NCBI GenBank assembly: GCA_964408285.1
Contig: CAYOYV010000003.1
Location: 29,848 to 93,847, forward strand
DNA length: 64,000 nt
DNA from: an uncultured Nitrososphaerota archaeon
GTDB lineage: Archaea > Thermoproteota > EX4484-205 > JAAOZO01
Direction of reading: 5' to 3'
The notes under the pieces are model-generated. The model was not told the DNA's origin. It ran no database searches and was given only the letters and a program-made list of their open reading frames with translations. The translations under genes were made by a program, and so were the position numbers. Shown piece by piece: positions 48,519-50,885 of this stretch (positions are counted from its first letter, which is position 1; the number at the start of each line of letters is the position of its first letter).

Positions 48519-49475
48519 TCAAGCGCAGCCCCAAAGTTGCCTCGAGAACCTCAACACCTGCTTGGCAAGCCTAACTCTGCCCCTCTGTCCGGCCATGAAT
48601 GTATCAGTCACAAAGGGCGTGATCCCTAGTTGCTCGATTTCGTGCCGAAGCTGAGAGTCACTTCTATCTATTACAAATGCGTCGATTATGTCCCGATACA
48701 TGCTTGCCACTTCCAATGAAGTGGTTTCTCTTTTGAAGGTCTTCAGCATCAGACTAAGGGGCCCCTTCACGACCTTTCCTCCAATTATCGGCGAGATGGC
48801 GATCGTAGGCTCGTTCCTGCTGCGCATGAGCTCCCTCACACTGTCAACGGAGAGGATCGGTCCTATGCTCACAAATGGATTGCTTGGGGAGAGAATAACT
48901 AGATCAGAGTGAGTTATCGCGCTCGTCACGCCTGGAGAGGCTCTAGCGCCAGACATCCCTCTGAATCTAATAGCGTTTATCTTGTCTCGCATCCTCCTTT
49001 TCACTAGATATTCCTGAAAGTGAAGATCGCCCGCCTTTGCAATGATTCGGGTCTCAACATGTGAATCTGTCATCGGGATTATCCTGCATTTCAGCCCAAA
49101 GGCTTTTCTGAAAAGTTCAGTTACCCGGGACAACGAATGGCCCTTCTGAAGCAATTCCGTTCTGACGATGTGGATGGCGATATCCATATCTCCCAGTCTG
49201 AACCACGTTTCTTGTCCGATCCTATCGAGCATTCTCATGCATCGAAATGTGTCCCCGGTGATCCCCCACCCCTTTGACTCATCAACGATACGAGCAAGCG
49301 AGTATGTTATGATGTCAATGTCTGGTGATACATAGAGACCATGAGTGATTATGTCGTCCGCAGTATTCACTATCGCGGTTACCCCCTTCTCAGGGAAAAC
49401 ACTAACCAGCCCAGTCAGAAATTTGGCTGCGCCGACCCCTCCGCAGAGGACCGTTATTTGTTTCGGCCAGGTCAT
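48519..49475 (-). CDS. cofD: 2-phospho-L-lactate/PEP transferase for F420 biosynthesis
   Basis: GGVGAAKF, NTADD, SPDID, WFRLGD, PMTD, PSNPFVSIGPIL, SPIIGG. Confidence 0.95.
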   Translation of the reverse strand: MTWPKQITVLCGGVGAAKFLTGLVSVFPEKGVTAIVNTADDIITHGLYVSPDIDIITYSLARIVDESKGWGITGDTFRCMRMLDRIGQETWFRLGDMDIAIHIVRTELLQKGHSLSRVTELFRKAFGLKCRIIPMTDSHVETRIIAKAGDLHFQEYLVKRRMRDKINAIRFRGMSGARASPGVTSAITHSDLVILSPSNPFVSIGPILSVDSVRELMRSRNEPTIAISPIIGGKVVKGPLSLMLKTFKRETTSLEVASMYRDIIDAFVIDRSDSQLRHEIEQLGITPFVTDTFMAGQRGRVRLAKQVLRFSRQLWGCA

Positions 49476-50080
49476 TTCCAAACTGAGACCTCCCTCAAGA
49501 GTCTGCGACGGGGTGGGCTAGGTCTTTCACATGATTTCCCCAGGGCGATCATGGCAATCGGTTCCCATTTCTTACCGACTCCTAGGACGCTGGCAACCTC
49601 TCTTCTGGCGAATAGCGGCGCACAACTCCATCTTGCTCCGATTCCAATTGCGTGGGCCATCAGCAACATGTTCTGGATGGCTGCCGATGCACTCTGAATC
49701 GCCATAGTTCTTTCAGCCGAATTCCTTATCTCATCACTATATACGTCCATATCTTCCATCGTCACTGCGACAACTATTATGACCGAGGTATGAAGAAATC
49801 TGTTCGTTGAGGATGCAATCACACGTTCGGCCTCAGCTGATCCTATGCCATCCCCTTCAAGGTCCTCTCTCCACTTCCTGCCCATCGCAACCAGCATTTT
49901 GTGCTTGTTCCTTTGATTCCTAACGATCACGAACCGCCAAGGTTGCGCATTATGAGCAGAAGGTGCCCATATGCCAGCAGAAAGGATTCTTTCTATTGTT
50001 CGCCTCCCTATAGACATCTCCCTGAGCTTCCTTACTGTTCTTCTGCCCTTGATGAAACGCAATAGTCGACTAGGATCCAT
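49472..50080 (-). CDS. Nitroreductase-family protein resembling the FbiB C-terminal domain (stand-alone)
   Basis: RRTVRK, APSAHNAQPWRF, MGRKWREDLEGDG, AERTMA..SASAAIQNMLL; ATGA overlap with cofD. Confidence 0.85.
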   Translation of the reverse strand: MDPSRLLRFIKGRRTVRKLREMSIGRRTIERILSAGIWAPSAHNAQPWRFVIVRNQRNKHKMLVAMGRKWREDLEGDGIGSAEAERVIASSTNRFLHTSVIIVVAVTMEDMDVYSDEIRNSAERTMAIQSASAAIQNMLLMAHAIGIGARWSCAPLFARREVASVLGVGKKWEPIAMIALGKSCERPSPPRRRLLREVSVWK

Positions 50081-50220
50081 TGTGGAGTTCTCCGCAGCGG
50101 GAGGTTTTAAGCGAGAGATGCCTCCGATCGAAGCCGACCTCGTCAGCTGGGGAAAAAGGATTGGCCGGATGGCTTGGGAGCTTCCGCGCATGCAACTCCA
50201 TCAGATAGCGATGGAAGCAT

Positions 50221-50865
50221 CTATTCGCGCATGAAACTGTCCAAGTCCGACACAAGAGCCTCGAATGTTTGGCCGAATATCCTCAAACCGATTTCCGGAT
50301 TCGCCTTTTTCGGATCTCCCGTCACCCCGAATGAGGGATCGGCGTACTTCATCATCTCTAATTTCGCCATACTTGGCCTAAGGTAGAGGATTTGAGATGT
50401 GAGGAAAGGATTGCCGGGGGAAAGCGGATCCTCGCCTTCAAGCTCAGGTACCTTCGGATAGTTCTGCCACAGTCCCAGTGCCTTCTTCTTTCCGGGGATC
50501 TGACCAAGAACAGTCTGGCATGCTTCAAGGTCTTTTTTGCCATTGCACAGAATGGCCGTCCTTTCGATTCTTAGCGTCTTGAGGCCTTTGGAGGATTCCA
50601 GAATTGCAGCCTTGAAAGCACTTTCTGAGGAAGGCAACAAGCTCCTTTCACTCAGGGTGGTTAGGACGATCGGGTTGAGGAATAGATATGGATGCAGCCT
50701 CTCTGTAAGTCTATGTGAATATTCCCCGACCAGTTCTATTTCCGATCCAGAAGCAAGATGAGGACCATGGTCCACAAGACCAGCGATTGGAATCAAGCCT
50801 GCCAAGGCCTGCTTCGATCTGTATCTGAATTCCGGACCTGTCATCTCGCCTGTTGAAGGTAGCAT
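50221..50865 (-). CDS. Creatininase/ArfB-family homologue with degenerate metal site
   Basis: LIPIAGLVDHGPHLASGSE resembles xPxGSxEQHGPHLPxGTD; GVTGDPKKANPEIG C-terminal motif; the NGHGGN and HAG..ETS motifs are lost. Confidence 0.65.
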   Translation of the reverse strand: MLPSTGEMTGPEFRYRSKQALAGLIPIAGLVDHGPHLASGSEIELVGEYSHRLTERLHPYLFLNPIVLTTLSERSLLPSSESAFKAAILESSKGLKTLRIERTAILCNGKKDLEACQTVLGQIPGKKKALGLWQNYPKVPELEGEDPLSPGNPFLTSQILYLRPSMAKLEMMKYADPSFGVTGDPKKANPEIGLRIFGQTFEALVSDLDSFMRE

Positions 50866-50885
50866 GGGCCACGGAATCAGCAAGC

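Follow-up and report, generated by a model that had tools for sequence, protein, structure and literature searches.

The origin of the lactyl side chain of F420 in archaea is disputed: no enzyme that forms 2-phospholactate (2-PL) is known in any organism (PMC6450877), and the in vitro data on CofC conflict. A locus from an uncultured, Brockarchaeia-like Thermoproteota archaeon of freshwater sediment, its lineage inferred from ValRS hits, raises this question in a specific form. Here a gene for a stand-alone nitroreductase-fold protein, P0001, overlaps cofD, and we ask whether its product may be a dehydro-F420-0 reductase, as would be expected if F420 were made from phosphoenolpyruvate (PEP). 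There is a bacterial precedent. A stand-alone nitroreductase (NTR) of Thermomicrobium roseum reduces dehydro-F420 according to PMC8498797, which cites Braga 2020, and this enzyme of Braga et al. 2020 (AEM) is named FbiE by Grinter and Greening 2021 (PMC8498797). The same account, again citing Braga 2020, mentions independent FbiE homologues in predicted archaeal F420 producers and suggests the PEP route there. The idea of an archaeal FbiE with a PEP route is thus already published and is not new here. The analysis covered a window of 64 kb, that is, the whole stretch of DNA, together with homologous loci from other genomes.

Organization of the reductase gene and cofD

The features of the locus are listed in Table 1. 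P0001 matches PF00881 at 106 bits. Its reading frame is open as far upstream as 50191, and we rejected a start there because the N-termini of homologues, which are 199-210 aa long, align at the MDPSRL position where they begin, and because the apparently 'conserved' upstream residues correspond to the TTAAAA box. The residues 'LKPPA', in frame 5' of the reductase ATG, are also found in a 78%-identical homologue (P0003); together with the TTAAAA box, this recurrence would fit a conserved promoter better than coding sequence. The reductase mRNA appears, from the sequence, to be leaderless and to start from this TATA box, about 27 nt 5' of the ATG; a search for RNA runs turned up DNA metagenomes from sediment only.

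Table 1. Features of the reductase-cofD locus (positions in the window)
Feature	Position	Strand	Remarks
cofD (2-phospho-L-lactate / enolpyruvyl transferase, FbiA homologue), P0002	48519..49475	minus	318 aa; TIGR01819 and PF01933
ATGA stop/start overlap, reductase/cofD	49472..49475	minus	plus-strand 'tcat', read directly
Stand-alone nitroreductase-fold gene, fbiE-like, P0001	49472..50080	minus	202 aa; predicted FMN-dependent dehydro-F420-0 reductase
GGAGG, Shine-Dalgarno-like	49489..49493	minus	in reductase 3' end; putative ribosome-binding site
TTAAAA, TATA-like box	50105..50110	minus	25-30 nt 5' of reductase ATG; read from sequence, putative promoter element

The identity of cofD is clear from its scores against TIGR01819 (299.3 bits, cut-off 257.45) and PF01933 (165 bits). 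The ATGA overlap described in the first-pass annotation is present on the minus strand as the reductase stop and the cofD start, the TGA of the one and the ATG of the other having three bases in common. Public gene calls use an alternative cofD start, the TTG at 49481, which gives a protein of 320 aa and an overlap of 10 nt, so that cofD overlaps the reductase gene with either start (ATG 49475 or TTG 49481). The GGAGG lies 7 nt 5' of this TTG and 13 nt 5' of the ATG. The 4-nt overlap is identical in a syntenic relative (L093/L094) and recurs in 11 of the 58 related loci that have both genes on one strand, among the matches listed; some overlap of the two genes is seen in about 40 of these 58, again among the matches listed and with rough choices of start. 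From this arrangement, the translation of cofD appears to be coupled to the reductase gene. A 4-nt overlap by itself is common in operons. What goes beyond chance is that the reductase gene is conserved directly 5' of cofD across several phyla.

Conservation of the linkage across genomes

At least 80 homologue loci were present in the contig listing, of which 76 could be evaluated; the genome of P0001 is not itself among the matches listed. The order NTR then cofD is found in 59 of the 76 evaluable loci among these matches, in Bathyarchaeia, Brockarchaeota, Nitrososphaerota, Asgard archaea, Korarchaeota and Chloroflexota. Adjacency to cofD across genomes, which had been proposed as a check on the first reading of the locus, is therefore strongly conserved. 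Of the NTR-cofD loci listed, 28 have cofC as the next gene and nine have cofE close by. The linkage is not universal, since 17 listed loci of one Bathyarchaeia subclade have no cofD near the NTR. In the 64-kb window, tblastn with CofC, CofE and LLM seeds found no cofC, cofE or F420-dependent LLM genes.

Fusions within the clade that contains P0001 (clade B, below) join the same functions in single proteins: NTR-CofD (P0146), CofC-NTR (P0123, P0184) and CofE-NTR (P0177, P0129). Other members of this clade, on plasmids of Paraburkholderia and Variovorax, have surroundings that are not F420-related.

Phylogeny

The main tree was inferred with IQ-TREE under LG+C20 from 102 sequences and rooted on the Listeria and Halocatena NTRs, a root that is a choice and not a proof. 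In this tree clade B (UFBoot 93 / SH-aLRT 88) holds P0001, all of the cofD-adjacent archaeal NTRs, the Chloroflexota proteins including that of T. roseum, and the C-terminal domain of actinobacterial FbiB (FbiB-C). NTRs of the 3gfa/Clostridia type form the sister clade A, outside clade B, under the same chosen root. A first tree (LG+G4, 219 sequences) had placed the 3gfa/Clostridia clade beside the P0001 branch with a weak support of 80, a placement that is gone in the LG+C20 tree, for which close homologues were added to split the long branch of P0001 and bootstraps were run. As the pairing was lost after denser sampling and with LG+C20, we regard it as a long-branch effect. The first-pass annotation had set clustering with generic nitroreductases as a test of its proposal; P0001 falls instead in one clade with FbiB-C and the free-standing enzyme of T. 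roseum. With the root as chosen, bacterial FbiE and FbiB-C nest within archaeal (Asgard-adjacent) diversity. Clade membership and the conserved linkage to cofD together support the proposal of an FbiB-C-like nitroreductase of the FbiE type, coupled to cofD.

Family scores, fold and pocket residues

The best NCBIfam models for P0001 are FbiB (PRK13294, 126 bits) and FbiB_CTERM (TIGR03553, 118.9 bits), followed by BluB at 75.9 bits, with no other model above 36. P0001 lies below the cut-off of TIGR03553 (F420_FbiB_CTERM), which is 249.55 bits. The stand-alone protein of T. roseum fails this cut-off too (163.4 bits), Rhodococcus FbiB passes it (315.6) and a clade-A protein scores 61. Since the T. 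roseum protein fails, the cut-off is suited only to the domain as fused in Actinobacteria. With an HMM built on the archaeal proteins, the NTR of the T. roseum cluster scores 248 bits, FbiB-C 132-138 and unrelated NTRs 68-78. The segments AMGRKWREDLEGDG and AERTMA, likened to FbiB in the first-pass annotation, are indeed present in P0001 and both align with FbiB-C of Mycobacterium tuberculosis (Mtb), the former with RMKDKWRSDLTSDG and the latter with AEHTMF.

The RRxxR motif in nitroreductases usually binds the phosphate of FMN. In P0001 it is N-terminal, and its R13, R14 and R17 are retained by 90% or more of the family. The AF2 model of P0001 has a pLDDT of 95 and fits FbiB-C best (4XOO, which is FMN-bound, and 4XOQ; TM 0.87-0.88, rmsd 1.8-2.8 Å), as compared with TM 0.80 and rmsd 4.8 Å for 3gfa; in the fold search, BluB structures rank far below FbiB-C. 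H43 is invariant throughout clade B and missing from clade A. In Mtb FbiB, P289, R337 and M372 are the modelled substrate-pocket residues, M372 lying in the methylene pocket (PMC6450877). M372 corresponds to M126 of P0001, and Met is found at this position in 40 of 44 archaeal sequences. The counterpart of P289 is A42; at this site 42 of the 44 archaeal sequences carry Ala, and the T. roseum protein carries Pro. R337 aligns with S90 and has no aligned Arg; the nearest, R94, is four residues on, where the aligned residue of the T. roseum protein is likewise an Arg.

Comparison with known proteins

The T. roseum homologue WP_012643075, presumed from its cluster position to be the assayed enzyme, is 40% identical to P0001 and is encoded in a megaplasmid cluster (cofD-cofC-DMT-NTR). 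Both proteins, the one from a Thermomicrobium and the other from a Thermoproteota archaeon, consist of a single nitroreductase-fold domain of about 200-225 aa, belong to the same clade and have H43, M126, R94 and the motif YxD..R..AE..M. They differ at the position of Mtb P289 (see above) and in gene order: in T. roseum the cluster has the order given above, whereas at the P0001 locus NTR and cofD overlap and there is no cofC nearby. FbiB-C of M. tuberculosis (4XOM/4XOO/4XOQ), the best structural match, has the KWR.DL..DG and AE.TM motifs and the M372 equivalent in common with P0001. Its identity to P0001 is about 26-30%, the equivalents of R337 and P289 differ, and the domain is fused to CofE, whereas P0001 is free-standing.

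Among solved structures the top sequence score of P0001 is to CD3205 of Clostridioides difficile (3GFA), at 93.8 bits and 32% identity compared with 75.5 bits for FbiB-C. Unlike P0001, CD3205 belongs to clade A and has neither H43 nor an equivalent of M372 nor the YPD..R..AE motif. Its relatives include fusions to DJ-1 and TPR and lie in plasmid neighbourhoods without F420 genes. C. difficile is not known as an F420 maker.

Proposed role of P0001 and alternatives

Homology, clade membership, the fold of the AF2 model, conserved synteny and gene fusions point to P0001 as an archaeal orthologue of FbiE, the free-standing reductase of dehydro-F420-0 and counterpart of the C-terminal domain of actinobacterial FbiB, which would act in a PEP-route scheme with CofC, CofD and CofE. 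We give this reading a probability of roughly 0.68. In this scheme PEP would be activated by CofC with GTP, and CofD, from the overlapping gene, would move enolpyruvyl phosphate onto FO to give dehydro-F420-0. The predicted FMN-bound dimer of nitroreductase fold would then transfer a hydride from FMNH2 to the enolpyruvyl methylene, giving F420-0, which CofE would glutamylate. The reductase gene and cofD would form a small unit, probably read as one leaderless mRNA from the TATA box, with translation of cofD perhaps achieved through coupling or through re-initiation, either at the ATGA or at the TTG 6 nt upstream. From these features we infer the enzymatic activity of P0001 and, for the organism, PEP as the main source of the side chain; as the first-pass annotation suggested, it is plausible that the archaeon takes the route by way of PEP and dehydro-F420 and not that by way of 2-PL. 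Even in vitro, CofC assays leave users of PEP indistinguishable from users of 2-PL, and the choice of substrate is not readable from sequence (PMC8764529). Two archaeal CofC/CofD pairs are 2-PL-specific in vitro (PMC8764529). A check on whether FbiE-bearing lineages were their source traced them to Hydrothermarchaeota and one unclassified archaeon, so that they have no direct bearing on P0001.

An alternative is that P0001 reduces dehydro-F420 for repair or proofreading. F420 would then be made chiefly from 2-PL, and labile dehydro-F420-0 would be rescued when promiscuous CofC and CofD sometimes take PEP. In every CofC tested, PEP accounts for 3.5-30% of total substrate use and 2-PL is favoured in vitro, and the CofD of M. 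jannaschii has a relaxed specificity towards EPPG (PMC8764529); the tight coupling to cofD would be equally suited to capturing a labile CofD product. However, T. roseum, which reportedly uses the DF420 route, likewise has a CofC that favours 2-PL in vitro, a 2-PL-forming enzyme is known in no organism (PMC6450877), and the reductase gene is kept across whole phyla, which suggests an essential step. We therefore consider a repair function unlikely. It is more doubtful still that P0001 is F420-linked with some other role, either as a non-redox partner of CofD or CofE or as a reductase of another deazaflavin or side-chain intermediate. FbiB's C-terminal domain does bind F420 and is needed to lengthen the glutamate tail of F420-0 (PMC6450877), and two of the three modelled pocket residues, P289 and R337, are not kept position for position in P0001. 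Yet the retention of RRxxR, H43 and the M372 equivalent points to a probably active flavoenzyme, and the T. roseum protein, reported as experimentally active, has the same R94-type arrangement.

The least probable reading, and one that we regard as very improbable, is that P0001 lies beside cofD by chance and is simply a BluB-like enzyme, a flavin reductase or a generic nitroreductase using NAD(P)H. Its best sequence match in the PDB is the uncharacterised C. difficile nitroreductase, and some proteobacterial members of clade B occur in contexts unrelated to F420. Against this stand the adjacency to cofD across phyla in most of the loci listed and the fusions of the clade to CofC, CofD and CofE, while 3gfa falls in the sister clade and superposes worse. 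For BluB (5,6-dimethylbenzimidazole synthase) in particular, the score of P0001 against TIGR02476 is 75.9 bits, below the cut-off of 150 bits.

Implications for archaeal F420 biosynthesis

Bashiri et al. 2019 sought a 'CofX' beside cofE and did not find it there. We offer as a tentative suggestion, in which we place somewhat less than even confidence, that fbiE beside cofD is this 'CofX'. In that case the TACK and Asgard archaea at large would start from PEP and make F420 by way of dehydro-F420-0, while the route through 2-phospholactate would be a speciality of methanogens and Euryarchaeota. The nesting of bacterial FbiE and FbiB-C in archaeal diversity suggests that the reductase and the PEP route could be archaeal in origin, having passed to Chloroflexota and Actinobacteria. 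The TACK and Asgard lineages concerned are Bathyarchaeia, Brockarchaeia-like Thermoproteota, Nitrososphaerota and the Kor-, Hel-, Hermod-, Thor-, Odin- and Promethearchaeota.

For annotation, what had been a 'nitroreductase family protein' can be called a probable dehydro-F420-0 reductase, and the published pattern of FbiE gains one lineage, that of the sediment archaeon studied here. A cofD-linked reductase across most non-euryarchaeal lineages that encode F420 synthesis would provide a clonable candidate with which the PEP/dehydro-F420 route may be probed.

Gene pair and proposed transcription unit

The first-pass annotation had described an FbiB-C-like nitroreductase (FbiB-C being the C-terminal domain of actinobacterial FbiB) coupled to cofD through an ATGA overlap, and the sequence confirms the coordinates and the overlap. 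In the gene calls of public assemblies, which have the same sequence, cofD starts at TTG 49481, six bases 5' of the ATG, giving a protein of 320 aa and an overlap of 10 nt with the reductase gene. The reductase ORF is open as far as 50191 and the spacer between the gene and its upstream neighbour is 140 nt. Starts up to 50191 were rejected in favour of 50080 on the lengths (199-210 aa) and N-termini (at the MDPSRL position) of the homologues and on the TTAAAA in the spacer. An in-frame LKPPA upstream of the ATG is apparently kept in P0003, a metagenomic homologue 78% identical, but because TTAAAA lies there this stretch is more likely to be a promoter than coding sequence. From the distance between TTAAAA and the start at 50080, we read the pair as a putative leaderless bicistronic unit in which cofD would be translationally coupled, both promoter and coupling being predicted. 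Sequencing runs matching this stretch were DNA metagenomes, with no RNA run among them.

Features of the reductase-cofD region and of related loci (L handles are loci encoding relatives; other positions are in the window)
Feature	Position	Strand	Remark
Nitroreductase-fold (NTR) gene, P0001, 202 aa	49472-50080	-	PF00881 nitroreductase family (Pfam), 106 bits
cofD, P0002, 318 aa	48519-49475	-	TIGR01819, 299.3 bits (cut-off 257.45)
ATGA	49475-49472	-	NTR stop TGA and cofD ATG, three bases in common
GGAGG	49493-49489	-	13 nt ahead of cofD ATG, 7 nt ahead of TTG 49481
TTAAAA	50110-50105	-	25-30 nt 5' of NTR ATG, within spacer
Putative creatininase-fold gene	50221-50883	-	directly upstream of NTR; weak PF02633, 29.7 bits (cut-off 31.3)
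Membrane-protein cluster 12	L001:11680-12225, L002, L006, L008, L026, L027, L065
Membrane-protein cluster 32	L007, L015, L033, L036
Membrane-protein cluster 33	L009, L012, L031, L069
Membrane protein of syntenic relative	L093:11601-12119
Plasmid gene, Paraburkholderia sp. PGU19	L082:5950-6624		clade B
Plasmid gene, Variovorax sp. PBL-E5	L083:4899-5594		clade B

Relationship to FbiB-C and FbiE

The best NCBIfam model for P0001 was full-length FbiB (PRK13294, 126 bits, over its C-terminal part), followed by the FbiB C-terminal domain (TIGR03553, 118.9 bits, under the cut-off of 249.55) and BluB (75.9 bits), with all remaining models at 36 bits or less. A tblastn search of plasmid records led to the Thermomicrobium roseum megaplasmid, where a protein with 40% identity to P0001 (WP_012643075, 'nitroreductase family protein') is encoded within a cofD-cofC-DMT-NTR cluster. 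This protein is presumed to be FbiE, the stand-alone enzyme whose reduction of dehydro-F420 PMC8498797 and PMC8764529 credit to Braga et al. 2020. It too falls under the TIGR03553 cut-off (163.4 bits), whereas a fused Rhodococcus FbiB passes it (315.6), so the cut-off captures only the fused domain of actinobacteria. Scored with an HMM of 36 archaeal homologues, the T. roseum protein reached 248 bits, FbiB-C 132-138, 3gfa (an uncharacterised Clostridioides difficile nitroreductase) 137 and unrelated nitroreductases 68-78. The two peptide segments noticed at the outset are present and align with M. tuberculosis FbiB-C, KWREDLEGDG with KWRSDLTSDG and AERTMA with AEHTMF.

By sequence the top solved structure is 3gfa (93.8 bits), with FbiB-C next (75.5 bits). 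The AlphaFold model of P0001 (pLDDT 95, pTM 0.90) superposes best on FbiB-C (4XOO/4XOQ/4XOM, TM 0.86-0.88, rmsd 1.8-2.8 Å) and worse on 3gfa (TM 0.80, rmsd 4.8 Å). The backbone was not resolved in a quick tree of 219 sequences, which placed the Clostridia/3gfa group beside the long branch of the window protein with weak support. To break this branch, eleven closer homologues were included in a careful tree, computed for 102 sequences under LG+C20 PMSF with ultrafast bootstrap and SH-aLRT, Listeria and Halocatena nitroreductases being chosen as root. In it, 3gfa and other Clostridia-type proteins make up clade A (96/78, 18 sequences). The 82 sequences of clade B (93/88) comprise the window protein, all archaeal homologues encoded next to cofD, Chloroflexota proteins including that of T. 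roseum, the actinobacterial FbiB C-domains and proteins from Proteobacteria. Within clade B the window protein shares a subclade, with good support, with metagenomic P0003-P0014 and a Brockarchaeota MAG. The ValRS of the window has its nearest matches in proteins that carry the labels Thermoproteota archaeon (63%) and Brockarchaeota (54%). The bacterial FbiE and actinobacterial FbiB-C sequences branch from within the archaeal ones, as sisters of a Thor/Odin group (99/94), and one protein from Dehalococcoidales (L063) falls with Helarchaeota (98/95). The direction depends on the root, and with the chosen root the tree hints that the reductase may have passed from archaea to bacteria.

Of the three residues named by Bashiri et al. 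2019 (PMC6450877) for the dehydro-F420-0 pocket of M. tuberculosis FbiB, M372 corresponds to M126 of P0001 (Met in 40/44 archaeal sequences), P289 to A42 (Ala in 42/44; Pro in T. roseum) and R337 to S90, with no aligned Arg; R94, four residues on, aligns with an Arg of the T. roseum protein. H43 is invariant across clade B and missing from clade A, and the N-terminal Arg motif is kept in the family.

Gene neighbourhoods and fusions

With each species represented by one genome, a scan gave relatives of 38-49% identity at 80 loci or more, the matches listed including Bathyarchaeia, Brockarchaeota, Nitrososphaerota/Caldarchaeales, Korarchaeota, Nezhaarchaeota, Asgard archaea (Hermod-, Prometh-, Thor-, Hel- and Odinarchaeota) and Chloroflexota. 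Among these matches, cofD is at most 400 bp away from the gene for the reductase in 59/80 loci (58 directly downstream on the same strand, one divergent upstream); the contig ends before any cofD is visible in 4/80, and cofD is absent from the flank in 17/80. When neighbouring genes were clustered and cluster representatives scanned, cofC (TIGR03552, 166 bits) followed cofD in 28 of the loci listed and cofE (TIGR01916, 188 bits) was nearby in nine. With start picks that are rough, about 40 of the 58 same-strand pairs listed have an inferred cofD start inside the 3' end of the reductase gene, the overlap being four bases in 11; in L039, L076 and L078 (Caldarchaeales/Nitrososphaerota) no in-frame ATG, GTG or TTG occurs between the reductase stop and the start of the cofD alignment. 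The syntenic relative L093/L094 (54% identity) has the four-base overlap of the window and shares with it the order deacetylase, creatininase-fold gene, rhomboid, surE, nreA, valS. Its creatininase-fold gene, a strong PF02633 match, is about 4 kb upstream and not adjacent, which makes a functional tie of the window counterpart (no match in an NCBIfam scan) to the F420 genes doubtful.

Directly beside the gene pair, at least 15 of the 80 loci listed, and also the syntenic relative of the window, encode small membrane proteins (polytopic, about 170-200 aa). They match ECF S-component families weakly (PF07155 ECF-ribofla_trS, ThiT) and could be uptake components for riboflavin or FO/deazaflavin; the window has no such gene.

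Fusions were collected by exhaustive search of representative proteins and Pfam scans. In clade B the reductase domain is joined to CofD (P0146, order NTR-CofD, 535 aa), to CofC (P0123 and P0184, order CofC-NTR, 393 and 411 aa), to CofE in FbiB-like manner (P0177, P0129) and to a PNPOx/FDOR-like domain (P0141 and P0153, 343 and 370 aa); the CofD, CofC and PNPOx/FDOR-like fusions are additions to the known CofE fusion, FbiB. Clade A partners are DJ-1, SnoaL or TPR modules. The clade B fusions to CofD, CofC and CofE therefore link the family to F420 side-chain synthesis independently of the window locus. At the level of homology and linkage, family models, tree, synteny and fusions support the initial reading of an FbiB-C-like reductase linked to cofD.

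Function and route

The most likely identity of P0001 is an FMN-dependent dehydro-F420-0 reductase of FbiE type, and its substrate would be what the co-translated CofD makes. This suggests that the archaeon may make F420 by the PEP route, as first proposed. The same data are also compatible with a role of P0001 in repairing mis-incorporated PEP. CofC assays cannot tell PEP users from 2-phospholactate users (PMC8764529), and a tblastn search of the 64-kb window gave no cofC, cofE or F420-dependent LLM gene. Some clade B genes occupy other surroundings. Around the two plasmid genes (40-43% identity to P0001) are FAD oxidoreductase, amidohydrolase and acyl-CoA genes, and the nearest 5-6 kb contain none for F420 biosynthesis. 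A Bathyarchaeia subclade with no cofD nearby (L010, L025, L042-L045, L048, L053, L055, L056, L058, L060, L070, L077) neighbours an LsrF-type aldolase (NF006081, 360 bits), a zinc alcohol dehydrogenase and a cupin, and could comprise paralogues with another substrate or merely unlinked fbiE.

Bashiri et al. 2019 (PMC6450877) inspected the genes around archaeal cofE, identified no convincing candidate for the reductase and proposed an unknown 'CofX'. Grinter & Greening 2021 (PMC8498797), citing Braga 2020, report independent FbiE homologues in predicted archaeal F420 producers and suggest a possible PEP route in diverse archaea. Archaeal FbiE homologues are thus already published, and the window, whose sequence is present in metagenomes of freshwater and other sediments, adds another example, a real observation that was correctly read.
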